The notes under the pieces are model-generated. The model was given only the letters and a program-made list of their open reading frames with translations. It was not told where the DNA came from and searched no databases. A program made the position numbers and the translations under genes. Shown here piece by piece: positions 1 to 16,199 of a DNA stretch of 64,000 bases. Every line of letters begins with the position of its first letter. Within the stretch, counting starts at the first letter, position 1. Origin of the DNA: Planctomycetota bacterium (GTDB taxonomy: Bacteria; Planctomycetota; UBA1135; UBA2386); assembly GCA_965228735.1 (NCBI GenBank), contig OZ245838.1, positions 1,184,001 to 1,248,000 of the forward strand, read 5' to 3'.

Positions 1-459
1 GTGCTCGGCGCGCGAACGCGGCGCGATGGCACCCTCGCGGGCGGGCTCGATGCCATGCGAGAGCAGCTCACCGCGATGCAGGGTCAGCTGCCGAGCGGGT
101 TCGTGCTCGCGGACGGTTCGGGACTGTCGAAGAACAACCGGGTGTCCGCGCGGCTGCTCGCGCGCGTGCTGCACGACGCGAAGCGGCGACCGTTCGGGGT
201 CGCGCTGCGGCAGGCGCTGCCGATCGCGGGGCGCACCGGCACGCTCAGCAAGAGGTTCCGCGGCACCGGACTCGAGGGCCGCGTGCGCGCCAAGACGGGT
301 TGGATCCGCGGCAGCTCGTCGCTGTCGGGCTACGTCGACGTGGACGGCCGGACGTTCTCGTTCGCCGTGCTCATGGGCTACGATCCGAAGAAGAGCGGCG
401 TGAACAAGCACCTGAAAGTGGCCCAGGAACGCATCGTGGCGGGGATCGCCGGCCGATGA
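1..459 (+). CDS. dacB: D-alanyl-D-alanine carboxypeptidase/endopeptidase (peptidase S13, PBP4 family), C-terminal part; 5' truncated by window edge
   Basis: DGSGLS..NR motif, LPIAGRTGTL, and KTG motif (RAKTGWI) followed by SLSGYV. Confidence 0.9.
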   Translation: MLGARTRRDGTLAGGLDAMREQLTAMQGQLPSGFVLADGSGLSKNNRVSARLLARVLHDAKRRPFGVALRQALPIAGRTGTLSKRFRGTGLEGRVRAKTGWIRGSSSLSGYVDVDGRTFSFAVLMGYDPKKSGVNKHLKVAQERIVAGIAGR

Positions 460-1313
460 CCGCGCAGCAGGAACGCGACGTCCGCGACGAGATCCTCGAC
501 CGCGCGCGCACGCTCGCGCTCGGGCTCTCGCGTATGGCCGGCGTCATGCTGCTCGAGCGGCGCGCCGCCGCGCAGTCGACCGTCGAGTCCAAGGGCCGCC
601 GGCGCGAACTCGTCACCACGGCGGACCGCGAGGCCGAGGCGATGATCGTCGGACCGCTGCTGCGCGAGTTCCCCGATCATGCGGTGCTCGCCGAGGAAGG
701 CGCGATGACGGCGCAGGGCGAGGCGCACCAGGACTCCGAATGGACGTGGATCATCGATCCGATCGACGGCACGACCAACTTCGTCCACGGGCTGCCGTTC
801 TTCGCCGTGTCGATCGCGCTGGCGCACCACGACGTGCCGGTGCTCGGTGTCGTGCACGCGCCGGCGCTCGGCGAGACGTTCGTGGCGAGCCTCGGTCGGG
901 GCGCCGAACGCCATCGCGGGGATGCCATCGAACCGCTGACGGTCACGAGGACCAGCGAGGTCGCCGACGCGCTGCTCGCCACCGGGTTCTCCTACAACCG
1001 CAACGAACCGGGGCGCGACGACAACTCGGCCCGGCTCGCGCGCGTGCTGCCGCTCTGCCGCGACCTGCGCCGGCTCGGCTCGGCCGAGCTCGACCTCTGC
1101 CTCACGGCGGCGGGCGTCTACGACGGCTATTGGGAGCTCTACCTGCAGCCCTACGACGTCGCGGCGGGCGCGGTCATCGTGCAGGAGGCCGGCGGCCGCG
1201 TGACCGACCTCGACGGTGGTGACGACTGGCTCTACGGCGGCCAGGTGCTCGCGACGAACGGCTTGCTCCACGACGCGCTGCTGCCGCTCGTGGGACCGGC
1301 ACCGACCGGGTAG
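456..1313 (+). CDS. suhB: Inositol monophosphatase family protein (SuhB-like)
   Basis: ELVTTADREAE, EE, WIIDPIDGTTNFVHG, LRRLGSA, PYDVAAG motifs; ATG 456 overlaps dacB stop (ATGA). Confidence 0.88.
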   Translation: MTAQQERDVRDEILDRARTLALGLSRMAGVMLLERRAAAQSTVESKGRRRELVTTADREAEAMIVGPLLREFPDHAVLAEEGAMTAQGEAHQDSEWTWIIDPIDGTTNFVHGLPFFAVSIALAHHDVPVLGVVHAPALGETFVASLGRGAERHRGDAIEPLTVTRTSEVADALLATGFSYNRNEPGRDDNSARLARVLPLCRDLRRLGSAELDLCLTAAGVYDGYWELYLQPYDVAAGAVIVQEAGGRVTDLDGGDDWLYGGQVLATNGLLHDALLPLVGPAPTG

Positions 1314-1869: not shown

Positions 1870-4800
1870 GTGGTGACGAACTCGAAAACGACCCCTCCGA
1901 ATGGCGCCCGCAAGCCCGGGAAACGGGCTGCCCGAGCCGCCGCAAACGGTGGCGTCAACACGGATTCGGTAGTCGTTCGCGGCGCCCGCGAGCACAACCT
2001 GAAGGGGGTCGACGTCGCGTTCCCGCGCGACAGCCTGACGACCTTCACGGGCGTCTCGGGCTCCGGCAAGTCGAGCCTCGCCTACCACACGATCTACCAG
2101 GAGGGGCAGCGGCGCTTCCTCGAGAGCCTGAGTTCGTACGCGCGGCAGTTCCTCGGGCGCATGGAGAAGCCCAAGGTCGATCTCGTCGAGGGCCTGTCGC
2201 CGACGGTCTCGATCGACCAGAAGTCGACAAGCCACTCGCCGCGCTCGACCGTCGGCACGCTGACCGAGATCGGCGACTTCCTGCGCCTGCTCTACTCGCG
2301 CCTCGGCGATCCGAGCTGCCCCGAGTGCGGGGCGGCGATCGAGGCCTGGTCGCCCGAGCAGGTGACCAACGCGATCGTCGAACAGCACGACGGCCACAAG
2401 GTCATGGTGCTCGCTCCGGTCGTGCGCGAGCGCAAGGGCGAGTACCGCAAGGAGCTCGCGGAGTGGGCGGCCAAGGGGTTCGTGCGCGCGCGCATCGACG
2501 GCGAGGTCCGGCGCCTCGACGAGGACATCCAGCTCGAGCGCTACGTCTACCACACGATCGAACTCGTCATCGATCGCCTGACCGTCGAGGCCGACAAGCG
2601 ATCGCGACTCGCCGAGGCCGTCGAACAGGCCGTGCAGCTCGGCGAGGGGATGGTGGGGCTGACGTTCGCGGACGGCGGCGGCGAACCCGAGTTCCGGCTG
2701 TTCTCGACGCTGCGCAGTTGTCCCAACGGTCACGGCGCGCTGCCCGAGATGGAGCCGCGCCTGTTCTCGTTCAACAGTCCGATCGGCGCGTGTCCCGAGT
2801 GCGACGGACTCGGTCACACGTTCGGCTTCGCCCCCGAGCTCATCGTCAAGGACCCGGACAGGTCGATCCGCGAGGGCGCGCTCTACGCGTTCAACGACGA
2901 CGGCAAACTGGTCTACGGCACGCTGACGCTGAAGCACATGGAGAAGGTCGCGGCCGCGTTCGGCTTCGACCTCGACAAGCCGTGGAAGAAGCTCGGCAAA
3001 CGTGCCCAGAGAGTCGTGCTCTACGGCTCGGGCAGCAAGAAGTTCGAGTTCAAGTGGCGGCGCAGCTCGTCGATGATGTCGACGTCCGGTAGCGACCGCA
3101 TCGCGTTCCCGGGGATCATCCGGCACTTCGAACGGGTGTATCGCCCGTCGCGCGCGCGCAACCTCGACCGCTTCCGGGCCGCGACGCCGTGCGGCGAGTG
3201 CGAGGGCACCAGGCTCACGGCCGCGGCCAACGCCGTGACGTTCGACGGCCGGACGCTGCCCGACGTGCTGGCGCAGTCGATCGATGACGCTGCCGCCTGG
3301 ATCCAGGGCCTCGAACTCACGGGCTCGGCGGCCGTGATCGGCGAGCCGATCGTGAAGGAGATCGATCGGCGCCTCACGTTCTTACGCGACGTCGGCCTCG
3401 GGTATCTGACCCTCGCGCGCCGCGCGCCGACGCTGTCGGGCGGCGAGGCGCAGCGCATCCGGCTCGCGGCCCAGGTCGGCGCCGGCCTGCGCGGCATCCT
3501 CTACGTGCTCGACGAGCCGAGCATCGGCCTGCACGCCCGCGACCAGGAGCGGCTGCTCCGGACCCTCGAAGCGCTGCGCAACCGCGGCAACACGGTCGTC
3601 GTCGTGGAGCACGACGAGGAGACGATGCGACGCAGCGATTTCCTCGTCGACGTCGGTCCCGAGGCGGGCGTCGACGGCGGGGAGGTCGTGGTGGCCGGCG
3701 ATCCCGACGAGGTGGAGCGCAGCGCCCGATCGCTCACGGGGCGCTACCTGCGCGGCGAGCTCAGCGTGCCGATGCCGGAGCAGCGGCGCGCGGGCAACGC
3801 CGGCGTGCTCCAGATCCAACGCGCGCGCCACCACAACCTGCAGGGCGTCGACGCCGAGATCCCGCTCGGTCGGTTCAGCGCCATCACCGGCGTGTCGGGC
3901 TCGGGCAAATCAACGCTCGTGCACCACGTGCTCGTGCCGTGGCTCAAGCGCGAGCTCATGGGCGCGGACGCCGGGCCGTCGCACTGCAAGTCCATCGCGG
4001 GCGTCGATCAGCTCGACAAGATCGTCGAGATCGACCAGGCCCCGATCGGCCGCACCCCGCGCAGCAACCCGGCGACCTACACCGGGGTCTGGACGCACGT
4101 GCGCGACCTGTTCGCGATGCTGCCGGAGAGCAAGCTGCGGCAGTACGAGAAGGGGCGCTTCTCGTTCAACGTCACCGGCGGGCGCTGCGAGGCGTGCGGC
4201 GGGGCGGGCGTAACGACGCTCGAGATGAACTTCCTCGCGCCCGTCGAGGTCGTCTGCGAGGAGTGCGGGGGCGCGCGCTTCAACGCCGACACGCTCGCGA
4301 TCCGCTGGAAGGACAGATCCGTCCACGACATCCTCGCGATGTCGATCGACGAGGCCGTCGCGTTCTTCGGCGAACAACCGAAGATCGTTCGCGGACTGCG
4401 GGCACTGCAAGATGTCGGACTCGGCTACGTGCGCCTCGGGCAGCCGTCGACGACGTTGTCCGGCGGCGAAGCCCAACGCGTCAAGCTGGCCACGGAGCTG
4501 CAGCGACCGGCGACCGGCAGGACGTTCTACGTGCTCGACGAGCCGACGACGGGGCTGCACTTCCACGACGTCGCGAAGCTCCTCGACGCGCTGCAGCGGC
4601 TCGTCGATGCGGGCAACACCGTGCTCGTCATCGAGCACAACCTCGACGTCGTGCGGGCCGCGGACTGGCTCATCGAGCTCGGGCCCGAGGGCGGCACGGG
4701 CGGCGGGCGGGTCGTCGCGACCGGCACCCCGGAGGATCTGGCCGACGGCGACGAGTCGCACACCGGCACGGCCCTGCGTGCGATCGGGCTCGGCAGCAAG

Positions 4801-7800
4801 CGAAAGAAGCGCTGCGCCAAAGCCAGCCAGAACGGCAAGAACGGGAGCGGCAAGAGCGCCGTCGGGCGCGCGCGCAAGCTGACATCGATCGCGGTGCGCG
4901 GCGCCACGACGCACAACCTCGCGGGCGTCGACTGCGACGTCCCGCTCGGCGAGTTCACGGTCGTGACCGGCCCGTCGGGCTCGGGCAAGTCGAGCCTCGC
5001 GTTCGACACGATCTTCCAGGAGGGACAGCGGCGCTTCCTTGAGAGCATGTCGACGTATGCGCGCCGCTTCCTCGGACGCCTCGACCGCGCACCCGTGGAG
5101 ACGATCGAAGGGCTCGGCCCGGCGATCGCGATCGATCAGAAGCGCACGGCGCGCAGCCCGCGATCGACCGTCGCGACGACGACGGAGATCCACGACTACC
5201 TGCGCCTGCTCTACGCGCGCATCGGCCGCCACCACTGTCCGGAGCACGGCGGCGAGCTGATCGCGTGGTCGCCGACGAAGGCCGCGAAGAAGGTCGCCAC
5301 GGATCACGCCGGCCGGCGGGCGCATCTCATGGCGCCGATCGCGGTGCCCTCCGATCTCCGGGACGACGGGGCACGCGCCGGGCCGTGGCTGGAGGCGCTG
5401 TGGCTGGAGTGGCGTCAGCAGGGCTACGTCCGGGCGTTCCTCGACGGCGACGAGGTCCGCATCGACGCGACCCGTCCGAGTGCGGTGCCGGACGAGTTGC
5501 TGCTCGTGATCGACCGCGTCGCGATCGCCAGCGCCGACGACAAGGGCGGCCTCACGCGGCTCAGCGACTCGATCGAACAGGCTCAGGTCGCCGCCGCGGC
5601 GCACGGTGGGGCGCCCGCCGCGATCGTCCAGTTCGCCGACGACCGCGAACGCCTGTGGTTCCGCACCGCGGCGGCGTGTGCCGAGTGCGGCTTCGAGGCG
5701 CCCAAGGACCCGCATCCGCGCTGGTTCTCGTTCAACCATCACAGCGGTGCGTGCCCGACGTGTCTCGGCCTCGGCGAGGTCGTCCTCTGCTCCGAGGCCA
5801 TGCTCGTCAATCACCCGGACAAGCCGACGTTCGGGGGCGCGATCAAGCACCGCGGCGCGGCCTTCACGTTCCTCACGAACCCCGAGGGGTGGTATGCGGC
5901 CGTCGCGCTCGAAGTCGCGGAGAAGCACGGCTTCGATCTCGACACGCCGTGGCAGGACCTGCCGCGGGCCGCCCGCGACCTGCTGCTGCGCGGCACCGGC
6001 AAGGAGCGCCACGAGGTCGTGTTCACGAAGCGCGACGCCAGACGCAAGCGCGAGTGGCGCATGTCGGTCGCGTGGAAGGGGCTCGCCCGCCAGGTCGAGG
6101 AGTGGTTCCACGGCAAGGGCTCCGACGAGGGGCAGAGCGGCGGCGACGAGCGCTACCGCGACGTGATGCGCAGCCAGCCGTGCCCGGATTGCGCCGGCGA
6201 ACGCCTCATGCCGGGACCTCGACACGTCAAGGTTTCGGGCGTGCGGCTGCCCGAGCTCCTCGCGGCGACGGTCGACGCCGCCGCGGAGCGGATCGAACGC
6301 TTCCGGCTGAACAAGACCGAGGCCCGCATCGCGGCCGATGTGCTCAAGGAACTCGAGCACCGGTTGTCGTTCCTGCGCGAGACCGGGCTCGGCTATCTGA
6401 CGCTCGATCGTTCGGCCGCGACGTTGTCGGGCGGGGAGGCCCAGCGCATTCGACTCGCCACGCAGCTCGGCAACAAGCTCGTCGGGGTGCTCTACGTGCT
6501 CGACGAACCGACCGTCGGCCTGCATCCGCGCGACACCGAGCGGCTGCTCGCGACGTTGCTCGAGCTGCGGGATCTCGGCAACACGGTCGTCGCGGTCGAG
6601 CACGACGAGACGATGGTGCGCGCCGCGGATCACGTCCTCGACCTCGGGCCGGGCGCGGGTCACCGCGGCGGCCGCATCATCGCGCACGGCACGCCGGCCA
6701 AGGTCGCGCGCAGCAAGGGGCTCACGGGCCAGTGGCTGCGCGGCGAACTCGTGCTGCCGGCACCGACCGAACGCCGCACCCCGCGCGGTCACGCCAGCCT
6801 GCGCGACGTGCGCATCCACAACCTGAAGGGCGTCGACGTCGACGTACCGCTCGGTTGTTTCACCGCGATCACGGGGGTCTCGGGGTCGGGCAAGTCGACG
6901 CTGATCATGGACGCGCTCGTGCCCGCGTTGCGGGACCAGCAACCGATCGTCGAAGTCGACGGCGAGGAGCAACCGCGCTACCAGCTCGTCGTCGTCGACC
7001 AGAGTCCGATCGGCAGTTCGCCCGCGAGCAATCCCGCGACCTACACGGGTGTGTTCACCGCGATCCGCGAGCTGTTCAGCAAGACCAATCTCGCGCGCCA
7101 GAAGGGCTTCACCCCGGGGCGGTTCTCGTTCCACGTCGCCGCGGGCCGCTGTCAGCACTGCGAGGGCAAGGGCCAGATCCAGGTCGAGATGCACTTCCTC
7201 GCCGACGTCTGGGTCGAGTGCGAGATCTGCCGCGGCAAACGCTACAACGCCGAGACGCTGAGCGTCGACTACCGCGGCAAGAACATCGCCGACGTGCTCC
7301 GCATGGAGGTCGACGAGGCCCTCGCGTTCTTCGGCAACCATCCGAAGATCAAGCGCCCGCTGCAGCTGCTGCACGACGTCGGCCTGGGCTACCTGCAGCT
7401 GGGTCAGCCGGCCAACACGTTCTCGGGCGGCGAGGCGCAACGCATCAAGCTCGTCACCGAGCTCGCGACGAGGCCACGAGCGCACATGATCTACGTGCTC
7501 GACGAGCCGACGACCGGGCTGCATCTCGACGATGTGAAGAAGCTCACGGGCGTGCTCGAACGGCTGCTCGACCGCGGCGACTCCGTGCTCGTCATCGAGC
7601 ATCACCTCGATCTCATTCTCGCCGCCGACCAGGTGCTCGAGCTCGGGCCCGAGGCGGGGGCGGATGGCGGCGAGGTCGTGGCGCAGGGCACGCCCGAGGA
7701 GGTCGCCGGCGTGGCGTCGAGTCACACCGGGCGGTTCCTCGCCGAACGGCTCGGGTTCGGTTCTGCGAAGAACGAGGCGGCGCCGCGACGGCCGGCGAAG

Positions 7801-7935
7801 CCCAAGAAGAACGCCAGGAAGGCCAAGAAGGCGACCAGAAAGACCGCGACGACCCGCAAGGCGAAGAAGGCCACGGCGCCGGCGGCGCGGCGGCGATCGC
7901 CGCGCGGCAAGAGCTCGGCAGGAGGCAACGCGTGA
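1870..7935 (+). CDS. uvrA: Excinuclease ABC subunit A, double-length (two fused UvrA modules)
   Basis: Four Walker A motifs (GVSGSGKS x3, GPSGSGKS), four (L/F)SGGEAQR signatures, four LDEP Walker B motifs, several CxxC zinc-finger pairs, GAREHNLK start. Confidence 0.96.
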   Translation: MVTNSKTTPPNGARKPGKRAARAAANGGVNTDSVVVRGAREHNLKGVDVAFPRDSLTTFTGVSGSGKSSLAYHTIYQEGQRRFLESLSSYARQFLGRMEKPKVDLVEGLSPTVSIDQKSTSHSPRSTVGTLTEIGDFLRLLYSRLGDPSCPECGAAIEAWSPEQVTNAIVEQHDGHKVMVLAPVVRERKGEYRKELAEWAAKGFVRARIDGEVRRLDEDIQLERYVYHTIELVIDRLTVEADKRSRLAEAVEQAVQLGEGMVGLTFADGGGEPEFRLFSTLRSCPNGHGALPEMEPRLFSFNSPIGACPECDGLGHTFGFAPELIVKDPDRSIREGALYAFNDDGKLVYGTLTLKHMEKVAAAFGFDLDKPWKKLGKRAQRVVLYGSGSKKFEFKWRRSSSMMSTSGSDRIAFPGIIRHFERVYRPSRARNLDRFRAATPCGECEGTRLTAAANAVTFDGRTLPDVLAQSIDDAAAWIQGLELTGSAAVIGEPIVKEIDRRLTFLRDVGLGYLTLARRAPTLSGGEAQRIRLAAQVGAGLRGILYVLDEPSIGLHARDQERLLRTLEALRNRGNTVVVVEHDEETMRRSDFLVDVGPEAGVDGGEVVVAGDPDEVERSARSLTGRYLRGELSVPMPEQRRAGNAGVLQIQRARHHNLQGVDAEIPLGRFSAITGVSGSGKSTLVHHVLVPWLKRELMGADAGPSHCKSIAGVDQLDKIVEIDQAPIGRTPRSNPATYTGVWTHVRDLFAMLPESKLRQYEKGRFSFNVTGGRCEACGGAGVTTLEMNFLAPVEVVCEECGGARFNADTLAIRWKDRSVHDILAMSIDEAVAFFGEQPKIVRGLRALQDVGLGYVRLGQPSTTLSGGEAQRVKLATELQRPATGRTFYVLDEPTTGLHFHDVAKLLDALQRLVDAGNTVLVIEHNLDVVRAADWLIELGPEGGTGGGRVVATGTPEDLADGDESHTGTALRAIGLGSKRKKRCAKASQNGKNGSGKSAVGRARKLTSIAVRGATTHNLAGVDCDVPLGEFTVVTGPSGSGKSSLAFDTIFQEGQRRFLESMSTYARRFLGRLDRAPVETIEGLGPAIAIDQKRTARSPRSTVATTTEIHDYLRLLYARIGRHHCPEHGGELIAWSPTKAAKKVATDHAGRRAHLMAPIAVPSDLRDDGARAGPWLEALWLEWRQQGYVRAFLDGDEVRIDATRPSAVPDELLLVIDRVAIASADDKGGLTRLSDSIEQAQVAAAAHGGAPAAIVQFADDRERLWFRTAAACAECGFEAPKDPHPRWFSFNHHSGACPTCLGLGEVVLCSEAMLVNHPDKPTFGGAIKHRGAAFTFLTNPEGWYAAVALEVAEKHGFDLDTPWQDLPRAARDLLLRGTGKERHEVVFTKRDARRKREWRMSVAWKGLARQVEEWFHGKGSDEGQSGGDERYRDVMRSQPCPDCAGERLMPGPRHVKVSGVRLPELLAATVDAAAERIERFRLNKTEARIAADVLKELEHRLSFLRETGLGYLTLDRSAATLSGGEAQRIRLATQLGNKLVGVLYVLDEPTVGLHPRDTERLLATLLELRDLGNTVVAVEHDETMVRAADHVLDLGPGAGHRGGRIIAHGTPAKVARSKGLTGQWLRGELVLPAPTERRTPRGHASLRDVRIHNLKGVDVDVPLGCFTAITGVSGSGKSTLIMDALVPALRDQQPIVEVDGEEQPRYQLVVVDQSPIGSSPASNPATYTGVFTAIRELFSKTNLARQKGFTPGRFSFHVAAGRCQHCEGKGQIQVEMHFLADVWVECEICRGKRYNAETLSVDYRGKNIADVLRMEVDEALAFFGNHPKIKRPLQLLHDVGLGYLQLGQPANTFSGGEAQRIKLVTELATRPRAHMIYVLDEPTTGLHLDDVKKLTGVLERLLDRGDSVLVIEHHLDLILAADQVLELGPEAGADGGEVVAQGTPEEVAGVASSHTGRFLAERLGFGSAKNEAAPRRPAKPKKNARKAKKATRKTATTRKAKKATAPAARRRSPRGKSSAGGNA

Positions 7936-9635
7936 CCGAACCGCCGCTGATCGTTCAAACGGACTGCACGGTGCTGCTCGAGACCTGGCACGACGACTAC
8001 GAGGCCGCGCGTGACCGGCTCGGCCGCTTCGCCGAGCTCGAGAAGTCGCCCGAGTACGTGCACTTCTACCGGCTCACCCCGGTGAGCATCTGGAACGCCG
8101 CGGCGCTCGGGGAGACCGCGGAGGACACGCTCACCTGGCTCGAGGCGAACGCGCGCTACCCGGTCGCGCCCGCGGTGCGGAAGCGCCTCGAGGACTGGTT
8201 CCGCCGCTACGGCCTGCTGCGACTGACGCCGGGCCCGGCCGGCCGCCTCGTGCTCGAGTGCGAAGACGACGAGGTGCTCGATGAGCTGCTCGAGGACGAA
8301 CGCGTCGCCGAGCTCGTGGAGTGGGACGATGACGAGCGCGCCACGATCGCGGCCGCAGCCCGCGGCGAACTCAAGCAGGCGCTAGTGCGGGCGGGGTATC
8401 CCGTCGACGATCGCGCGGGTTACGCGGCCGGCAACGAGCTCGCGTTCGGGTGGCGTGACCGCACGACCTCCGGCTCGGCGTTCGCGCTGCGTGACTATCA
8501 GACCGAGGCCGCGGCCGCGTTCCACGCCGGCGGATCGGATCGCGGCGGCTGCGGTGTCGTCGTGCTGCCGTGCGGTGCCGGCAAGACCGTCGTCGGGATC
8601 GCGGCGATGCAGTTGCTGCAGAACAACACGCTCATCCTCACGACGAACACCGTCGCGGTGCGCCAGTGGTGCCAGGAACTCCTCGACAAGACCGACCTGC
8701 GGCCCGAGGACGTCGGCGAGTACACCGGTGACCGCAAGGAGATCCGACCGGTCACGGTCGCGACCTACCAGATGCTCACGCACAGGAAGGGGAAGACCGA
8801 CGAGTTCACGCACCTGGGCCTGTTCGACAGCGGCGGCTTCGGCCTCGTGATCTACGACGAGGTCCACCTGCTGCCGGCGCCCGTGTTCCGCGCGACGGCC
8901 GGGATCCAGGCCAGGCGCCGGCTCGGGCTCACCGCGACGCTCGTGCGCGAGGACGGGCGCGCGGACGAGGTGTTCTCGCTCATCGGACCGAAACGGTTCG
9001 AGGTGCCGTGGCGACAGCTCGAGGACGGCGGCTTCCTCGCGACCGCGCACTGCGCCGAGGTCCGGGTGCCGTTGAGCGCGGAACGCGAGGCCCGCTACGA
9101 GGCCGCGACCGCGCGCTCCCAGATCCGCATCGCGGCCGACAACGAGCAGAAGATCGACGTGACGGGCGCGCTTCTCGAGTTGCACCGCGACGACCGCGTG
9201 CTCGTGATCGGCCAGTACATCGAACAGCTCCGGCAGCTGGCCCAGGTTTTCGGCATTCCGCTGATCACCGGCCAGACGCCCAATGCGGAGCGGGAGCGCC
9301 TCTACGAGAGGTTCCGCGTCGGCGAGCTGCCGCGGCTCATGGTGAGCAAGGTCGGCAACTTCGCGATCGACCTGCCCGATGCCAACGTCGCGATCCAGGT
9401 ATCCGGGACGTTCGGCAGCCGGCAGGAAGAGGCGCAGCGCCTCGGGCGGGTGCTGCGCCCCAAGGCCGATGGCCGCGCCGCGCACTTCTACACCCTGGTA
9501 TCGGCCGCGACCCGCGAGCAGGAGTTCGCCCAGAAGCGGCAGCTGTTCCTGACCGAGCAGGGCTACGGCTACGCGATCCTCGAAGCCGATGAACTGTCAG
9601 AACGCGCCCGCAAGCTGCGGGAGGAGCGTGCATGA
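7932..9635 (+). CDS. XPB/Ssl2/Rad25-like SF2 DNA repair helicase
   Basis: N-terminal LIVQTDCTVLLE domain; VVLPCGAGKT (I), DEVH (II), TATLVREDG (III plus XPB RED motif), QRLGRVLRPK (VI); GTG 7932 overlaps uvrA stop (GTGA). Confidence 0.93.
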   Translation: MTEPPLIVQTDCTVLLETWHDDYEAARDRLGRFAELEKSPEYVHFYRLTPVSIWNAAALGETAEDTLTWLEANARYPVAPAVRKRLEDWFRRYGLLRLTPGPAGRLVLECEDDEVLDELLEDERVAELVEWDDDERATIAAAARGELKQALVRAGYPVDDRAGYAAGNELAFGWRDRTTSGSAFALRDYQTEAAAAFHAGGSDRGGCGVVVLPCGAGKTVVGIAAMQLLQNNTLILTTNTVAVRQWCQELLDKTDLRPEDVGEYTGDRKEIRPVTVATYQMLTHRKGKTDEFTHLGLFDSGGFGLVIYDEVHLLPAPVFRATAGIQARRRLGLTATLVREDGRADEVFSLIGPKRFEVPWRQLEDGGFLATAHCAEVRVPLSAEREARYEAATARSQIRIAADNEQKIDVTGALLELHRDDRVLVIGQYIEQLRQLAQVFGIPLITGQTPNAERERLYERFRVGELPRLMVSKVGNFAIDLPDANVAIQVSGTFGSRQEEAQRLGRVLRPKADGRAAHFYTLVSAATREQEFAQKRQLFLTEQGYGYAILEADELSERARKLREERA

Positions 9636-11548
9636 GTCGTTTGAGTCTGAGAGCGTTGCTGCAGCGCGCGGACCAGGAGTCGGTCCGTGACTGCGTTGCG
9701 CATTGGGTCGAGAAGAACCCGCCTGCGCAGCGCCGGATCGCGATCCAGCGGGCCGCGGCGGCGATGGAGGACGAAGCCCTCGTCTTGCGCCGGATGGGCG
9801 CGCTGCCGCGCAAACTGCAGGACCTGCTCGAGGTGTTCTTCGGCGAGAACGGCGCCGTCCGGTGCGTGAAGGAGCTCTACGCCGAGCTCGGCGAGTCGTT
9901 CAAGAGCCGCTTCGATCTCGAGGCCACGCTCGCGGCGCTGCATCGCGAGGGCTTCCTCTGGCAGGCGACGGACAAGCGCTGGGCCGAGGAGGACAGCCCC
10001 GCGTGGGGTGTGCCCGGCGAGCTCGTCGAGTGCGTCCAGCAGTATCGGCGTCGCAGCGAGCGGCAGCTGCAGGACTCGATCACGCTGCAGGGCTATCTCG
10101 ACGCGCGCTACTTCCGCGATCGCGAACAGGCCGGCGACGGCGACCAGAACGGCGCGACCAACGCAAATGGCAGCGACGATGGCAGCCGGAAGAACGGTCG
10201 TGCTGCGAAGAACGGGTGCTCGGCCAAGGACAAGGCCGCGGATCACGCGCGCAAGATCTACAAGCTCTACACGATGGATAGCTCGATGCGGCAGCGACTC
10301 GAGAAGCTGCCGGATACGCTGCGGACGGTCGTCGACGAGGTGCTCGGTCGGCACGGGGGCATCTGCGCCTGGGACGAGCTCGCCGAGGAGATCGAACTCT
10401 CCGAAGGCGCCGACGCCGACTTCGTGAAGAAGGGGCTCGAGGAAGCCATGATCGGCACGGTCGGCACCCTCGACCTGACCCGGCTCGGGATCCAGGCCGT
10501 CGACCGCGGGGTCATCGTGTTCCACGAGGTCGCGCTCTTCGCGATCCGCGCGCGCGGCGAAGCCAGCATGCCCCAGGTCACCGAGGAGCTGGTCTGCGGC
10601 GGCGACTTCGCCACGAACGTCGCCCGCTTCCTCCGGGAGCTGCAGCAGAGCAAGGTGATGTTCACGGCCGATGGCAAGCTGTTCAAAGCCTCGCAGAAGC
10701 GCATCGCGAACACCCTGCTGCCCGTGCCCGGCGAGTTCCTGCCGCCGGAGTCGCTGCTCGAGCAGCTCTACCGCTTCTGCCTGCAGCGGCGATTGATCGA
10801 CCGCCGGGGCGAACGTTCGCTGCGCCCGACGCCGGCCGGGCAGGAGTTCGACCGCAGCGCGCTCAACGACCAGACGAAGATGCTGCTCGCGCACTTCGTC
10901 GAGGACCGCGCGCTGCCCGGCGAAGGCTATCACCAGGTCCGCATGCGGCGGGTTCTGTTGCGTCTGCTCCGCCGGGCCGAGCCGATGCTCTGGCAGGACG
11001 CCTCCGTGCTGCCGTTTCTCGCCCGCAACGCCTACCTCGCGCAGCTCGACGGCAAACAGACGGAGGAGTTCTTCGCGACGCGCTTCCAGGGTGGTGGCTA
11101 CGCCCCGAGCGAGACCCTCCAGCAGATGTGCTGGAACCTGCTCGTCTGGGTCAAGAAACGGCTGTTCCCGCTCGGCATCGTCGACCTCGGCCTGCACTCG
11201 GGTCGCCTCGTGGCGATGCGGCTGTCGCAGCTCGGCGCCGAACTGCTCGATGCGGAGCCGGCCGGCAAGGTCGGCGGCACGCGCAGCAGCCTGATCGTAC
11301 AGCCGGACTTCGACGTGCTGTTGTTCAGCGGCGACGACGTCCACGACGCGGTGCACGTGCTCGACCGCTTCGCGCGGCGCATCAAGAGCGACCACGTGCA
11401 TCAGTTCCGACTCGAGCAGCAGAGCGTCGAAGCCGGCCTCGCGGAGGGCCTCACGATCGCCGAGATCGTGCAGGAGCTGACCGACCGCGCCCGCGTGCCG
11501 ATCCCGCAGAACGTGCGCTACAGCCTGGAGGAGTGGGGTCAGCAGTGA
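9632..11548 (+). CDS. Helicase-associated protein with C-terminal XPB-N-terminal-like (Helicase_C_3) domain
   Basis: C-terminus LIVQPDFDVLL..LDRFA..VHQFRLEQQSV..GL..IPQNVRYSLEEW resembles the N-terminal domain of the upstream XPB; no helicase motifs; ATGA overlap with XPB stop. Confidence 0.8.
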   Translation: MSRLSLRALLQRADQESVRDCVAHWVEKNPPAQRRIAIQRAAAAMEDEALVLRRMGALPRKLQDLLEVFFGENGAVRCVKELYAELGESFKSRFDLEATLAALHREGFLWQATDKRWAEEDSPAWGVPGELVECVQQYRRRSERQLQDSITLQGYLDARYFRDREQAGDGDQNGATNANGSDDGSRKNGRAAKNGCSAKDKAADHARKIYKLYTMDSSMRQRLEKLPDTLRTVVDEVLGRHGGICAWDELAEEIELSEGADADFVKKGLEEAMIGTVGTLDLTRLGIQAVDRGVIVFHEVALFAIRARGEASMPQVTEELVCGGDFATNVARFLRELQQSKVMFTADGKLFKASQKRIANTLLPVPGEFLPPESLLEQLYRFCLQRRLIDRRGERSLRPTPAGQEFDRSALNDQTKMLLAHFVEDRALPGEGYHQVRMRRVLLRLLRRAEPMLWQDASVLPFLARNAYLAQLDGKQTEEFFATRFQGGGYAPSETLQQMCWNLLVWVKKRLFPLGIVDLGLHSGRLVAMRLSQLGAELLDAEPAGKVGGTRSSLIVQPDFDVLLFSGDDVHDAVHVLDRFARRIKSDHVHQFRLEQQSVEAGLAEGLTIAEIVQELTDRARVPIPQNVRYSLEEWGQQ

Positions 11549-11674: not shown

Positions 11675-13120
11675 ATGGAACCCGAAACACTCATCCTCGG
11701 CGCCGGACCCGCCGGTCTCGCCTGCGCCATGGAGCTGTCGCGCAAGGGCAAGCCGAGCGTCGTCATCGAGAAGGACGCGCAGATCGGCGGCCTCGCGAAG
11801 ACGCTGCGGATCCCGGTGGGTGACCAGGAGTTCCTGACCGACATCGGGCCGCACCGGTTCTTCTCGAAGAACCAGTACCTCTACGACTTCATCGAGGACC
11901 TGCTCGACGAGGAATGGCGGCTCGTGCCGCGGCAGACGCGGCAGTTCATCGACGGAAAGTTCTACGACTACCCGGTGAAGGCGATGCAGACGTTCAAGAA
12001 CCTGGGGCCGCTGCGCAGCGCCAGGATCCTGTTCGACTACTTCGCGGCCCGCATCACCTACGGCGTCTTGGGCAAGAAGCTCGAGACGTTCGAGGACTAC
12101 GTCGTGTCGAACTTCGGCCGCTCGCTGGCCGAGTTCAGCATGATCAACTACTCGGAGAAGATCTGGGGCATCCCGGCCGCCGAGATCCACCCGGACTGGG
12201 CGCGGCAGCGCATCAGCGGCCTCAACCTCTGGAGCGTGTTCAAGAAGGCGATCGGCCTCGGCGGCGGCAAAGGGCCGAAGTCGCTCGTCGATCAGTTCTA
12301 CTACCCGCAGTTCGGCACGGGCCGCATCTACGAGGAGATCGGCAAGCACCTCGTCCAGGAAGGCGGCGAGATCCACACGGCCAGCGAGCCGGTCAAGGTG
12401 CGCCACGAAGGCGGGCGGATCACCGAGGTCGACGTCAGGGCGCCCGACGGCAGCGTGCACACGTATCGCCCGGACAACCTCGTCGAGTCCGTGCCGTTGA
12501 CGCGCTTCCTGCACCTGCTCGATCCGCTGCCGCCGACCGAGGTGCTCGAGGCCGCCGCCGGCCTGCGCTGGCGCGCGCAGGTCTACCTGTTCCTCACGCT
12601 GAACAAGGAATCGATCACGCCGGACAACTGGATCTACTTCCCCAACAAGGACATCCCGTTCGGCCGCACGAGCGAGATGAAGAACTTCAGCAAGGACATG
12701 TGCCCCGCGGGCAAGACGTCCTTCTTCGTCGAGTTCTTCGCGTTCGAGGAAGAGGCGATCTACTCGATGACCAAGGAAGAGGTCTTCGAGCTGTCGATGC
12801 CGTACTTCGAGAAGTGGGGCTTCTTCTCCCGCGACGAGGTGGAGAGCATCCACCTGATCAAGCGGCCGAACGTCTACCCGGTCTACGACCTCGAGTACGA
12901 TACGCGCCTCGCAAAGGTGCGCGACTGGCTCGACGCGATCGAGAACCTGATCTACATCGGCCGCCCCGGTCGCTTCCGCTACACCAACCAGGACCACAGC
13001 CTCGAGATGGGCATCCTCGCGAGCCGCATGATCCTCGAAGGGCGCAAGTACGACCTCGACACGATCGGGGCCGAGAACGAGTACTTCGAGAAGGGGCCGA
13101 TCTACGAGAAGCGCATCTGA
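11675..13120 (+). CDS. FAD-dependent oxidoreductase (protoporphyrinogen oxidase/UDP-galactopyranose mutase-like superfamily)
   Basis: ILGAGPAGL Rossmann motif, IEK..IGGL, DIGPHRFFSK, YSEKIWG, GRPGRFRYTNQDHS. Confidence 0.85.
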   Translation: MEPETLILGAGPAGLACAMELSRKGKPSVVIEKDAQIGGLAKTLRIPVGDQEFLTDIGPHRFFSKNQYLYDFIEDLLDEEWRLVPRQTRQFIDGKFYDYPVKAMQTFKNLGPLRSARILFDYFAARITYGVLGKKLETFEDYVVSNFGRSLAEFSMINYSEKIWGIPAAEIHPDWARQRISGLNLWSVFKKAIGLGGGKGPKSLVDQFYYPQFGTGRIYEEIGKHLVQEGGEIHTASEPVKVRHEGGRITEVDVRAPDGSVHTYRPDNLVESVPLTRFLHLLDPLPPTEVLEAAAGLRWRAQVYLFLTLNKESITPDNWIYFPNKDIPFGRTSEMKNFSKDMCPAGKTSFFVEFFAFEEEAIYSMTKEEVFELSMPYFEKWGFFSRDEVESIHLIKRPNVYPVYDLEYDTRLAKVRDWLDAIENLIYIGRPGRFRYTNQDHSLEMGILASRMILEGRKYDLDTIGAENEYFEKGPIYEKRI

Positions 13121-13809
13121 TGCCGGCGCCGCGCGACAGCTCCGGTCGCCTCGATCCGGCACTCCTCGAGGTCGTCATGATCAGCGACGGCCGCGGCGAC
13201 CTGCCGCGCCTCGAACGCACCGCGGCGGCAGTGATCGAGGCCGGCGTTCGCTGCGTGCAGATCCGCGAGTCGCGCTGGACCGCGCGCATGCTCGTCCAGG
13301 CCTGCGAGAGGCTGCGCCCGTTGCTCGACGCCGTGGCTGGCGTGCTGCTCGTCAACGACCGGGTCGACGTGGCCGCGGCCGGCGTCGCACACGGCGTGCA
13401 CCTCGGCCATCGTTCGTTGCCGATCGACATGGCGCGCCAGGTCCTCGGCCCCGATGCGGTCATCGGTTACTCGGCGCACGACACCGCGGAGCTCGAGCTG
13501 GCGGCCGTCGCACGCGCCGACTTCGCAACGCTGTCGCCGGTGTGGCCCACGAGCAGCAAGCCCAACGCACCGACGGTCGGGGAGAGCCGCGCCATCGCGC
13601 TCACCGGCAACGCGCGGCTGCCCGTCGTCTGGCTCGGCGGCATCACGACGCGCGAAGCCGCGTCGATCGCGCGCTACACCGATGGCCCGCAGCCGGCCGG
13701 GGTGGCGGTGCGTTCCTTGTTCGGCGACGCCGAGGACCCGGGGTTCACCGCCACCCGGCTGCTCTCGGCGCTGCGCGGTGACGGCGCCGTGGACGGCGCG
13801 ACGGACTGA
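13120..13809 (+). CDS. thiE: Thiamine-phosphate synthase
   Basis: VQIRE, LLVNDRVDVA, GVHLG, IGYSAH, LSPVWPTSSKP, LGGIT; start overlaps upstream stop (TGATG). Confidence 0.85.
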   Translation: MPAPRDSSGRLDPALLEVVMISDGRGDLPRLERTAAAVIEAGVRCVQIRESRWTARMLVQACERLRPLLDAVAGVLLVNDRVDVAAAGVAHGVHLGHRSLPIDMARQVLGPDAVIGYSAHDTAELELAAVARADFATLSPVWPTSSKPNAPTVGESRAIALTGNARLPVVWLGGITTREAASIARYTDGPQPAGVAVRSLFGDAEDPGFTATRLLSALRGDGAVDGATD

Positions 13810-13844: not shown

Positions 13845-14426
13845 CTACTCGTCCTCGGGACCGGCCGCGACGATCGGGAACCCGGCGCCGTCGGCTTCGA
13901 GGTAGGCCGCCAGGGTCTCGCTGTCGGGCGCCTTCAGCGTGCGACCACCCGGTCCCGAGTCAATGTGCACTGCATGCTGGCGCGGCGGGCCGTCCGCGAG
14001 GAACGCGGCGTGCTCCGGACTGTCCGCGCGGAAGACCCACACCCGGTCGTCGACGACTTCCACTCGGAACCCGACGCGCGAGCAGAGGTAGGCGTCGATC
14101 GTCGCTCCGGAATCGGCGCAGATCGTCATGCCGTCCGGACCACCGTCGTTGATGCGGACAGCGCGCGCGAGCGACGGGCCGTTGGCGACGAACTCCTCGC
14201 ACGCCGGGCTGTTCGCCTCGAAGACCCAGAGCCGGTCGCCGCGCACGAACGCCGAGTAGCCCGGTCGCGCGAAGCTCGGCTGTTCGACGGTGACCTCGGG
14301 CGCGGCGTCGGCGAAGAGGGCCCCGGCCGGGCGTTCCGCGGGACCGCCCGCGCAGCCGGCCAGAGTAGCCAGAGCAGCCAGACCCGAGAGGGCGAGTGAG
14401 AGAGACAGCGTGCGGAACTGCATCAT
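13845..14426 (-). CDS. Lipoprotein with two ~60-aa internal repeats, function unknown
   Basis: Lipobox LAGC; repeats G..V..DR(L/V)WVF...S...F..G...GP.G.T.....T..AYL; alternative GTG start at 14444 overlaps pstS stop. Confidence 0.75.
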   Translation of the reverse strand: MMQFRTLSLSLALSGLAALATLAGCAGGPAERPAGALFADAAPEVTVEQPSFARPGYSAFVRGDRLWVFEANSPACEEFVANGPSLARAVRINDGGPDGMTICADSGATIDAYLCSRVGFRVEVVDDRVWVFRADSPEHAAFLADGPPRQHAVHIDSGPGGRTLKAPDSETLAAYLEADGAGFPIVAAGPEDE

Positions 14427-14440
14427 GGAATCTCCGTCGG

Positions 14441-15565
14441 TCACTTGAACTTGGCGCGCTGGGACGCAGCCGCCCGGAACGTGAGTGGCAGGTAGCCCGC
14501 CTCGACGACGTCGAGCTGGCCCTGGCGACTGAGCACGTAGCTCAGGAACTCGCGGCGCAGCGGATCGAGCTCACCGTCGCGGTCGTAGTTGACGTAGAGC
14601 AGCAGGAAGCGGCTCAGCGGGTAGTCGCCCGAGTAGGCGTTCTCGGCCTCGGGCGCGAAGATCTCGCCGCGCTCGCGGTCGGCCTCGGCACGCGCGAGCG
14701 GCACGGCGCGCACGGCGTCCGAGAGCAGCCCGATGCCGCTGTAACCGATCGCGTAGCGGTCAGCGGCGACGGCGCGCAGCACGGCGTTGCTCGTCGGCTG
14801 CTGCTTCACGATCGACCGGAACCGGCCGCCGCCCAGCGCATGCTCGCGGAAGTGCGCGTAGGTGCCCGAGCTCGCGTTCCGGCCGTGCAGCCGAATCGTC
14901 TGGTCTGCCCACGTCCCCGTTAGCCCGAGCTGCCCCCACGTGCGCGTACCGGGCTCCCGGTCACCCGACGTGTCACGGATGACGACACGCCCGTCCGCGC
15001 GCCGCGCCGGCTCGGGCGCCGCGCTGCCGCTCGGCGCCGGCCCGCCGAAGATCGCGGCGAGTTGCGCCAGCGTCAGGTCGCGAATCGGATTGTCCTTGTG
15101 AACGTAGATCGCGATCATGTCGACGCCGGTCGCGATGGGCGTCGGGCCGTACCCGAACTTCTTGCGGAACGCCCCGACCTCCGCCTTCGTCATCGAGCGG
15201 CTCATCGGCGCGAAGTTCGCCGTTCCCTGGGTGAGTGCCGGCGGAGCCGTGCTCGAGCCCTTGCCCTCGACGGCCACCTTGATCTCGGGGTAGAGCTTCA
15301 CGAATTCCTCGCCCCAGAGCGTCATCAATCCGTTCATCGTGTCCGAACCGACCGCTCGAATCGTGCCGGCCACGGCGGCGGCTCGCGTGTAGGGCGGCAG
15401 CGCCCGATCGACGCGGGCCGAGGCTTCCTGCGGAACGCCGCGTTGGCTGGCGGGCTGCTGACCTGGCACCGGCGACACGAGCAACGACAGGGCGCCGATC
15501 ATCACGAATCGATCGACGCGCGACCGGCCGCCGCAGGGCAGAACACGCAGAAGGCTGGCGAACAT
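14441..15565 (-). CDS. pstS: Phosphate ABC transporter substrate-binding protein
   Basis: VGSDTM, EGKGSSTAPPAL, APMSR, GRNASSGTY, IGYSGIG, YPLSRFL motifs; start uncertain (15565 or 15502). Confidence 0.9.
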   Translation of the reverse strand: MFASLLRVLPCGGRSRVDRFVMIGALSLLVSPVPGQQPASQRGVPQEASARVDRALPPYTRAAAVAGTIRAVGSDTMNGLMTLWGEEFVKLYPEIKVAVEGKGSSTAPPALTQGTANFAPMSRSMTKAEVGAFRKKFGYGPTPIATGVDMIAIYVHKDNPIRDLTLAQLAAIFGGPAPSGSAAPEPARRADGRVVIRDTSGDREPGTRTWGQLGLTGTWADQTIRLHGRNASSGTYAHFREHALGGGRFRSIVKQQPTSNAVLRAVAADRYAIGYSGIGLLSDAVRAVPLARAEADRERGEIFAPEAENAYSGDYPLSRFLLLYVNYDRDGELDPLRREFLSYVLSRQGQLDVVEAGYLPLTFRAAASQRAKFK

Positions 15566-15618
15566 GGTTCGGGTTGGCGCCGACCGGCGGGAGCCGTCGG
15601 CCCGGAGCACCGATCCGA

Positions 15619-15767: not shown

Positions 15768-16199
15768 ATGACCGCTGCCGATCTACCGGCCCACGAACGC
15801 GCGATGAGCCGCGTGCGCCTCGCCAAGCGCATCCGCCGCTGGACGTTCCTGCTCGGAATCATCGCGATCGCGTGGTCCTGGCTGTGGTTCGGCGGCCGCT
15901 GGGTCCCCGAGGGCATGGACACCGTTCCGGAGATGCCCCCGGGAACGTTCTGCTTCATCGCGAAGCGGAGCGGCGGCGTGGCGGTCGACAGCCACGTCTT
16001 CATCAAGATCGGCGGCGGGGACGTCGTGCTCTCCCGCGTGGTCGCCGTGGATCACGGTGCCGGCACGGTCTCGATCCGGCACCCGAACCCGGACTCCAGG
16101 GTCCCGGACAGCCGCGCCCTCGGGGCCCTGCCGCTGGCCGACGTCGAGGGGTTGGTCATCGGCTCGTTCAAGCCGAACACCGGCGATGGCGGGCGCTGA
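15768..16199 (+). CDS. Membrane-anchored S26/S24 peptidase-fold-like protein, probably degenerate
   Basis: N-terminal TM helix; P..PPG, SRVVAV and DSRALG.(L)P...V.G segments resemble signal peptidase boxes. Confidence 0.55.
   Translation: MTAADLPAHERAMSRVRLAKRIRRWTFLLGIIAIAWSWLWFGGRWVPEGMDTVPEMPPGTFCFIAKRSGGVAVDSHVFIKIGGGDVVLSRVVAVDHGAGTVSIRHPNPDSRVPDSRALGALPLADVEGLVIGSFKPNTGDGGR

Follow-up and report, generated by a model that had tools for sequence, protein, structure and literature searches.

A bacterial XPB helicase and the protein encoded directly behind it probably form a two-part DNA motor of their own, with the tandem UvrA protein encoded just upstream serving ordinary UvrABC repair. 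The three genes reside in a 64,000-nucleotide stretch of DNA from a Planctomycetota bacterium (the window), and we view the system as a bacterial TFIIH-like XPB-p52 module that operates beside normal UvrABC repair. Specifically, XPB and its partner would be the counterpart of the XPB-p52 part of eukaryotic TFIIH.

All three genes lie on the forward strand. ORF1 (1870..7935; 2021 aa) encodes a double-length UvrA, ORF2 (7932..9635; 567 aa) encodes XPB, and ORF3 (9632..11548; 638 aa) encodes the p52/Tfb2-like partner. Both the open reading frames and the bases as read confirm the coupled array described in an earlier note on this DNA, with the stop/start overlap GTGA joining uvrA to the XPB gene (7932..7935) and ATGA joining the XPB gene to the partner gene (9632..9635). 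A purine-rich GGAGG-type stretch precedes the start codons of both the XPB and partner genes. The overlaps alone are not unusual, because unrelated junctions in the window overlap as well, namely those between a dacB-like gene and an inositol monophosphatase (IMPase) gene (ATGA, 456-459) and between an oxidoreductase gene and thiE (TGATG). The IMPase gene (456..1313, forward strand; PF00459) and the thiE/TenI-family gene (13120..13809, forward strand; PF02581) are conserved upstream and downstream members of the surrounding gene block, and they serve as controls from outside the module.

ORF2 passes the XPB equivalog model NF045503 (813.5 bits versus a cut-off of 610). Its GKT, DEVH, RED, and QRLGR motifs are intact, and an N-terminal domain (PF13625, aa 6-128) is followed by an SF2 core that carries the RED motif (PF16203). 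The only Pfam match above cut-off in the partner is also to PF13625 (residues 554-636). A predicted structure of the partner (pLDDT 91.6) contains an extra N-terminal winged-helix-like domain (~aa 41-144) and then a p52-like region (aa 226-638). When this model was used as a Foldseek query, every one of the top 20 matches was a p52/Tfb2 chain, with alignments mostly spanning 430-466 columns and a best E-value of 1e-7. In VIA, model residues 226-638 are colinear with p52 residues 48-397 at Z-scores of 14.3-14.9, with high rmsd. Against this likeness, global TM-scores between the partner and p52 are low (~0.2, with rmsd of 7-18 Å) because the domain arrangement differs, and sequence identity is 10-15%.

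The clutch, or XPB-NTD-like domain, occupies aa 550-638 (11279..11545, forward strand; PF13625), with invariant residues at 559 and 561. It superimposes on the XPB NTD of 6ro4_A (Z 16.1, rmsd 1.3 Å) and on the p52 clutch of 6trs_B (Z 13.5, rmsd 1.9 Å), over 89 residues in each case. Likewise, a profile built from 77 partners and compared to the PDB picks out the NTD of XPB at E 4e-5 and, at E 0.003-0.017, the clutch of p52/Tfb2; a single-sequence PDB search with the partner gives no matches. The window's partner has no match to the Pfam Tfb2 family (PF03849), and none of 40 partners from Planctomycetota loci passes the cut-off of this model (best E 2e-5). One acidobacterial relative of the partner does pass it, at 39.9 versus 34.5 bits. 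In the ESM Atlas, matches were confined to hypothetical PF13625 clusters and fell short of its recognition threshold, and the partner matches no nuclease family. The window's partner stops 3 aa past the clutch and thus is without the C-terminal domain (a tail of ~70 aa), and at least 67 aa follow the clutch in 73 of the 77 aligned partners. A pair whose partner bears the tail occurs within the same family (G021). In a relative, clutch and tail together match both the XPB NTD plus DRD and the p52 clutch plus CTD.

One might argue that the partner is no p52 counterpart, being instead an independent winged-helix protein that acquired a copy of the N-terminal region of XPB. Winged helices are common folds, and both the clutch and the relatives' clutch plus tail are slightly nearer to the N-terminal region of XPB than to p52. 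We nevertheless consider this origin very improbable, given that the colinear match to p52 extends beyond the clutch: 6tru_D, which holds the N-terminal half of p52 without the clutch, aligns with model residues 226-540 at Z 10.8 over 211 residues, 6tru_A is also among the Foldseek matches, and full-length p52 chains have E-values four orders of magnitude better than those of XPB chains. Judging from the predicted structure, the partner appears to fold like most of p52/Tfb2 and to be more than a carrier of a clutch. The earlier description of a p52-clutch-like partner is therefore strengthened, in that the predicted likeness to p52 covers ~410 residues.

Knowledge of TFIIH suggests how such a pair could work. 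The NTD of XPB and the clutch of p52 are reported to form a pseudo-symmetric dimer in TFIIH (PMC6422496), and p52 alone is reported to stimulate the XPB ATPase, with a further increase from p8 (PMC7708078). By analogy, the N-terminal domain of bacterial XPB would dock the partner clutch as a pseudo-symmetric dimer, the partner might tune the XPB ATPase, and its winged helices could hold DNA or other proteins. The pair may then be a translocase that assists genome maintenance without being essential and that opens DNA or reanneals it, with tailed or bubble DNA as its putative biological substrate. Its co-translation with uvrA would reflect an old shared gene block and, probably, useful co-expression with a repair gene, rather than lesion delivery.

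The tandem UvrA itself comprises two complete UvrA units. Each of two UvrA models, TIGR00630 and PRK00349, matches ORF1 in two places, and the halves of the protein are 45% identical to one another. It carries Walker A and LDEP motifs, four of each, that correspond to four ABC ATPase sites, followed by a basic, low-complexity C-terminal tail. The canonical UvrA features (ABC ATPase sites, zinc modules, insertion domain, and UvrB-binding domain) are found in both halves. The first UvrB-binding domain (aa 161-264; 2350..2661, forward strand; PF17760) is canonical, and it matches 4dfc_B (E 5e-23) and 3fpn_A (E 5e-18) in the PDB. The second (aa 1134-1242; 5269..5595, forward strand) is diverged, is without the RKGE-type motif, and has no UvrA match in the PDB at E<=1. 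This motif is missing from the second domain in all 33 XPB-linked tandem UvrAs and in 25 of 28 others.

As the earlier note stated, uvrB and uvrC are missing from the window. A check of the rest of the genome reveals a single full-length copy of each, both above their family cut-offs and located ~0.92 Mb from the window. The genome also encodes an Mfd protein that passes its cut-off and a UvrD-type helicase, and such a helicase is present in all five genomes checked, with or without XPB. XPB as a substitute for UvrB or UvrC is rejected by the presence of both genes, and a role as a substitute for UvrD or Mfd is unneeded, as these are encoded too. A second tandem UvrA in the genome is without a UvrB-binding domain. 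Since uvrB and uvrC are complete and the XPB-linked tandem UvrA is the only UvrA of the genome with such a domain, this protein is likely the ordinary damage sensor of the cell, loading UvrB for UvrABC repair.

These observations bear on a hybrid pathway, in which the tandem UvrA, much as XPC does with TFIIH, would bring in the XPB-p52-like pair at a lesion to create a second branch beside UvrB loading. The diverged second UvrB-binding domain could be free for another partner, but a role as XPB dock is unsupported, because tandem UvrAs from genomes without an XPB match show the same degree of divergence in this domain. Furthermore, uvrB and uvrC are retained both in this genome and in five of five relatives that have a degenerate UvrA, and no gene for a nuclease, XPD, p8, p62, or a p44/p34-like protein was recognized among the annotated neighbors of the trio. 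We consider the hybrid pathway improbable.

To examine this conservation, loci were gathered by search with an XPB alignment, and trees were built with FastTree. The partner gene lies no more than 1.1 kb behind the XPB gene in 99 of 103 scorable loci, and partner-like genes near XPB also occur in other phyla and in Thorarchaeota. Adjacency of uvrA and XPB extends well past close relatives, as it is found in 16 Planctomycetota families, which speaks for a hybrid pathway. Outside this phylum, in contrast, uvrA is beside XPB in none of 58 loci, 40 of which have at least 6 kb of upstream sequence. The gene block around the trio is old, and its unrelated members (IMPase, thiE) are retained over similar distances. 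Counted by family, the uvrA-XPB link is retained in 16 of 33, and links to unrelated neighbors are retained in 12 of 32 (partner-thiE) and 13 of 30. Therefore, uvrA-XPB synteny alone is no proof of a hybrid pathway.

The near-equal retention of unrelated links would also be expected if the uvrA-XPB adjacency were a meaningless accident of the ancestral block and the pair acted outside excision repair, for example at RNA polymerase or in recombination. Such pure inheritance is unlikely in our estimation, yet less so than a hybrid pathway. The uvrA-XPB junction, with an overlap of -4 or -1 in 32 of 41 adjacent loci, is the most conserved in the block and counts in favor of a hybrid pathway; overlaps occur in 49 of 80 loci at the XPB-partner junction, and in 35-67% at the six standing junctions of the block other than uvrA-XPB. 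Retention of the uvrA-XPB overlap in 13 of 16 families argues against simple inheritance, as does the persistence of the trio in families f19 and f53, where IMPase and thiE have mostly departed. Moreover, a WYL domain, described as a nucleic-acid sensor tied to damage responses, is present in some of the distant partners, which likewise does not favor a role remote from repair.

Separate losses weigh against any obligate partnership of UvrA and XPB. The XPB-partner pair is cleanly deleted in five genomes of the same family (G007, G015, G016, G022, and G147), leaving uvrA directly before thiE. Conversely, uvrA is gone from the block in 12 loci of three other families (f4, f33, and f61), where IMPase is within 800 bases of XPB and no uvrA lies between them. 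An obligate pairing of UvrA with XPB in the block is thus contradicted by clean losses in both directions, and the hybrid pathway is weakened accordingly.

A related idea is that, in this Planctomycetota lineage, the tandem UvrA with its unequal halves serves as a sensor for two routes: one half would load UvrB, and the protein would in addition recruit a TFIIH-like XPB-p52 motor to open DNA at lesions, with these jobs being split between proteins in families f2, f5, and f26. A degenerate UvrA is found beside XPB in f2 (4 of 4 genomes), f5, and f26, and other UvrAs are encoded elsewhere there. The degenerate XPB-linked UvrAs lack the insertion domains and, in these three families, also the RKGE-type motif. 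They nonetheless stay intact with dN < dS, a point in favor of the hybrid pathway as well. If this were so, these families would keep one stripped-down UvrA to serve XPB and a different one to serve UvrB, and a bacterial sensor would drive a eukaryote-type opener. We judge this version to be as improbable as the hybrid pathway itself.

Regulatory scans were also conducted. The sequence GTTC-N7-GTTC, which we take to be the alphaproteobacterial SOS box, occurs exactly before lexA and with one mismatch before recA in this genome. Unlike these genes, the window's uvrA has no such box upstream (1600-1970), as pure inheritance would have it. Exact boxes occur in none of 66 uvrA upstream regions, and one-mismatch boxes turn up at scattered sites in 20 of 66, with 10.6 for mononucleotide shuffles. 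A promoter and terminator scan yielded no sigma-70 sites and 3 terminator-like sites versus 4.2 expected.

On balance, a two-part XPB-p52-like motor beside ordinary UvrABC repair accounts best for the data. A direct hand-off from UvrA to XPB is possible but unlikely, because UvrB and UvrC are kept and because UvrA and the pair are lost separately in relatives. The earlier proposal that UvrA delivers lesions to the XPB pair is thus unsupported, given also that unrelated neighbors are kept over similar distances. The gene-block control directs the hybrid-pathway question to those lineages in which the XPB-linked UvrA is degenerate. The coupled p52-like partner provides a direct handle on bacterial XPB, so far studied alone, and the naturally tail-less partner in the window offers a ready comparison for the role of the C-terminal domain. 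These findings also suggest that, within TFIIH, the XPB-p52 part is a prokaryotic module of long standing.

Searches of a mainly open-access literature listed no account of a p52 homologue in bacteria or of an operon joining uvrA to XPB. Among the closest known systems is the XPB-p52(-p8) part of TFIIH (human XPB/GTF2H4 and yeast Ssl2/Tfb2; 6NMI, 8EBT, and 6TRS). As in that complex, an XPB with an N-terminal domain is accompanied by a motor-less partner that, in its predicted structure, has winged helices and then a clutch with the XPB-NTD fold. Unlike TFIIH, the annotated neighbors at this locus include no recognized p8, p34, p44, p62, or XPD. The bacterial partner also differs from p52 in bearing an extra N-terminal winged-helix-like domain and, in the window, in being without the C-terminal domain that is the positional counterpart of the p8-binding domain of p52.

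Similarly, the double-length UvrA resembles the Planctomycetota tandem UvrA described in UvrABC(D) repair (Mahajan et al., 2021; PMC8567305), as both consist of two fused uvrA units in a genome that also has uvrB, uvrC, mfd, and a UvrD-type helicase. Unlike the tandem UvrA as described there, the one examined here has XPB and its partner downstream and a diverged second UvrB-binding domain; the main text of that report does not mention XPB. The XPB of the window matches the actinobacterial XPB/Ercc3 (Balasingham et al., 2012; PMC3353954; NF045503) in family, domain layout, and RED motif. Corynebacterium glutamicum, used as a control genome, likewise passes NF045503. The actinobacterial protein was studied alone, whereas the XPB gene of the window has a p52-like gene in translational coupling with it and uvrA upstream. 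The same 2012 report on mycobacterial XPB states that p52 homologues had not yet been found in bacteria, and describes weak enzyme activity. The Mycobacterium tuberculosis enzyme is reported to carry out D-loop unwinding and strand annealing (PMC3353954), and its loss is reported to cause rifampin hypersusceptibility in one study and not in another screen (PMC10534295); both points speak for the pure-inheritance reading. Finally, the archaeal XPB-Bax1 helicase-nuclease (PMC13024598), as described, provides another example of XPB paired with a dedicated protein outside TFIIH. In that system Bax1 is a nuclease positioned on the thumb/HD2 region, whereas the partner described here is predicted to bind via the N-terminal domain.

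The three same-strand genes stand as the earlier note described them: ORF coordinates and junction bases agree on a GTGA overlap that joins uvrA to XPB and an ATGA overlap that joins XPB to its partner. Specifically, ORF1 (1870-7935, +) encodes a tandem UvrA that TIGR00630 matches twice, ORF2 (7932-9635, +) a bacterial XPB that passes the NF045503 model, and ORF3 (9632-11548, +) the partner, in which Pfam gives a single passing match, a C-terminal PF13625, the family to which the XPB N-terminal domain (NTD) also belongs. The UvrA halves, 45% identical to each other, both have an insertion domain and a UvrB-binding domain besides the ATPase motifs. Among the matches listed, the nearest loci bearing a taxon name are from Planctomycetota, a phylum whose double-length UvrA is already known from an earlier paper (PMC8567305).

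The likeness of the partner to p52 and its clutch, the domain that shares the XPB-NTD fold, is upheld by both Foldseek and VIA comparisons of its predicted structure. The model, built from 77 homologues, is confident (pLDDT 91.6, pTM 0.88), and its best 20 Foldseek matches in the PDB are all p52/Tfb2 chains (best E 1e-7), most of them aligned over 430-466 columns; XPB chains align over only ~88 columns. VIA places partner residues 226-638 on p52 48-397 (Z 14.3-14.9) with an rmsd of 7-17 Å, which is high because the domains are differently arranged. Separately, residues 226-540 match a clutch-less p52 half (6tru_D, Z 10.8), whereas residues 550-638 match the XPB NTD (Z 16.1, 1.3 Å) and the p52 clutch (Z 13.5, 1.9 Å). 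Residues 41-144 resemble assorted winged helices (Z ~8), which may merely reflect a common arrangement. The partner sequence profile weakly recovers the same two families, XPB NTD and p52. That the partner is not a true p52 counterpart is highly improbable, although this p52-like protein lacks two p52 hallmarks, the C-terminal tail and a Pfam Tfb2 match. It ends three residues past the clutch; 73 of the 77 aligned partners extend at least 67 aa beyond it. Within the window's family the tail is absent in 15 genomes and present in three (G010, G011, and G021), and the G021 clutch plus tail matches XPB NTD+DRD and p52 clutch+CTD alike over ~160 columns. A WYL domain forms the end of the protein in some distant partners (L126, L132, L204, and P0119).

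By analogy with p52, the most likely reading, and one that we hold to be probable, is that XPB and its partner form a p52-type heterodimer acting as an accessory translocase, while UvrA is ordinary. We infer from the same analogy that the partner binds XPB: the XPB NTD would dock on the partner clutch, the partner would tune the XPB ATPase, and its winged helices would hold DNA or client proteins. The pair would be a dispensable accessory in genome maintenance, co-expressed with a UvrA whose job would be to load UvrB.

Of 41 genomes from the same order, the window's among them, 34 have XPB, and a phylum-wide set of 201 yields 96. The XPB loci fetched number 110: the order sample gave 20, and the 101 phylum matches gave 90 once five fragments and six loci that were already included had been set aside; the partner lies behind XPB within 1.1 kb at 99 of the 103 loci with enough sequence. 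With 1182 clusters at E<=1e-30, the partner belongs to a large family. In a cross-phylum set of 80 XPB loci with taxon names, the best of at least 600 matches, uvrA adjoins XPB at 11/22 Planctomycetota loci and at 0/58 others; the upstream sequence reaches 6 kb or more at 40 of these others, and many of the 58 have a partner-like gene close to XPB. Three archaeal contigs of similar gene order, one from Thorarchaeota (Asgard), carry an NTD-bearing bacterial-type XPB (L221:9959-15129, L206:9938-15986, and L250:9983-16894), with a partner-like PF13625 protein of 571-583 aa a few kb downstream.

The genes uvrB and uvrC, which the earlier note suggested seeking elsewhere in the genome, are both present and full-length ~0.92 Mb from the window, and the genome (G000) also has mfd, a UvrD-type helicase, lexA, and recA. 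A GTTC-N7-GTTC direct repeat, which in this lineage is a candidate SOS box, is exact upstream of lexA (contig C1 4468018, -) and has one mismatch upstream of recA (C1 1314295, -). A second tandem UvrA (G000 C1:5260662-5265650, a 1663-aa frame) has no UvrB-binding domain in either half, the absence that marks class II UvrA (PMC9328131), and by sequence it classes as a doubled class II-like UvrA. The first UvrB-binding domain of the window's UvrA aligns with the interaction domains of solved UvrAs (E 5e-23), so this would be the only one of the two able to load UvrB. Alignments of that domain to solved UvrAs conserve an RKGE-type motif, which we take to be part of the UvrB-binding face. The second domain has diverged, and there the motif is missing from 33/33 XPB-linked and 25/28 other tandem UvrAs; the divergence is thus not tied to XPB. 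A reversed type in families f33 and f5 (L172, L173, and L174) keeps the motif in the second half and has lost it from the first.

Synteny of uvrA, XPB, and partner is not confined to close kin. The conserved block runs dacB-like, IMPase (inositol monophosphatase), uvrA, XPB, partner, thiE, thiL-like, tsaE, and ECF-type sigma, dacB and thiL being labels that we assigned from motifs and an AIRS match. Link retention was scored with hand-coded states on 89 rows, which represent families whose partner is of the full-length type. Another 22 rows, holding second copies or partners of a different type, were omitted, and uvrA lying 1.7-7.8 kb upstream (five loci) was scored as unlinked. The uvrA-XPB link is kept at 43/79 scorable loci and in 16/33 families (6 changes, counted on a FastTree XPB tree), the partner-thiE link at 33/76 loci and in 12/32 families (4 changes), and IMPase in the block at 34/67 loci and in 13/30 families (11 changes); these counts are descriptive because related genomes are not independent. 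Lineage-specific insertions in the window's block are an FAD oxidoreductase (11675-13120, +), a PstS-like binding protein with a small lipoprotein-like gene (13845-15610, -), and a 147-aa ORF without assignment (1325-1768, -). A 143-aa ORF without a Pfam match (15768-16199, +) is conserved between thiE and thiL in f1, f7, and f10.

Both uvrA and the XPB-partner pair are lost without the other. uvrA directly abuts thiE, with no pair between, in G007, G015, G016, G022, and G147; conversely, IMPase lies <800 bases from XPB with no intervening uvrA at 12 loci of f4, f33, and f61. In G093, G116, and G138, IMPase and uvrA are still together and the pair is located elsewhere, and in many genomes that have XPB, the single or tandem UvrA is not linked to it. 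These two-way losses, the presence of uvrB and uvrC, and the similar retention of unrelated links argue against the earlier note's proposal that UvrA hands lesions directly to the XPB-partner pair, which we now regard as quite improbable. In G014 (L049, contig C11) the XPB and partner frames are intact but strongly diverged (branch length 1.38), which suggests that the module is decaying in some members of the window's family. A single stop codon in frame, or a break in the frame, possibly an assembly error, interrupts uvrA at L051 (G013) and L065 (G056) and the partner at L035 (G028) and L111 (G092).

Given such retention of unrelated links, the uvrA-XPB adjacency might carry no functional meaning, an unlikely reading. 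Some observations nevertheless speak for a link. The uvrA-XPB junction permits a -4 or -1 overlap in 32/41 adjacent loci and 13/16 families; the figures are 49/80 at XPB-partner and 11/23, 7/17, 16/30, 6/9, and 9/26 at five unrelated junctions. The trio also persists in f53 (2 loci) and at 3/4 f19 loci where the flanks are gone, with no IMPase within ~5 kb and no thiE within ~4 kb. Finally, all four f2 genomes (loci L037, L038, L255, and L256, and L151, L257, and L258) retain beside XPB a degenerate tandem UvrA of 1570-1630 aa, which lacks the insertion domains and, in its second half, most ATPase motifs. These genomes also have a separate pair of near-complete single UvrAs, the UvrB-binding domain being sound in one and weak in the other, which suggests a split heterodimer. 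Families f5 and f26 resemble f2. The degenerate XPB-linked UvrAs have dN < dS, with dS near saturation in most pairs, yet evolve faster than XPB. In f9, a degenerate UvrA of ~1330 aa (e.g. L040:767-4795), with two ATPase sites, a weak UvrB-binding domain, and no insertion domain, is the sole uvrA match in 24/26 genomes; in 23/26 it sits upstream of XPB on the same contig, at a hit-to-hit distance of 1.7-2 kb. Both f9 genomes examined have uvrB and uvrC, suggesting that UvrA remains able to serve UvrB even in stripped form.

Neither tandem UvrA nor XPB in bacteria is a new finding; this analysis adds the control on the gene block, the clean losses in both directions, a comparison of junctions, and the partner variant without a tail. 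The literature searched yielded no description of a bacterial p52-like partner, and the 2012 mycobacterial XPB paper states that p52 homologues were not known in bacteria (PMC3353954). As that paper reports, mycobacterial XPB by itself is a weak 3'-5' helicase that requires a 3' tail, opens D-loops, and anneals strands, but fails to open bubbles (PMC3353954). The weak activity of this lone enzyme could be explained by the absence of its partner.
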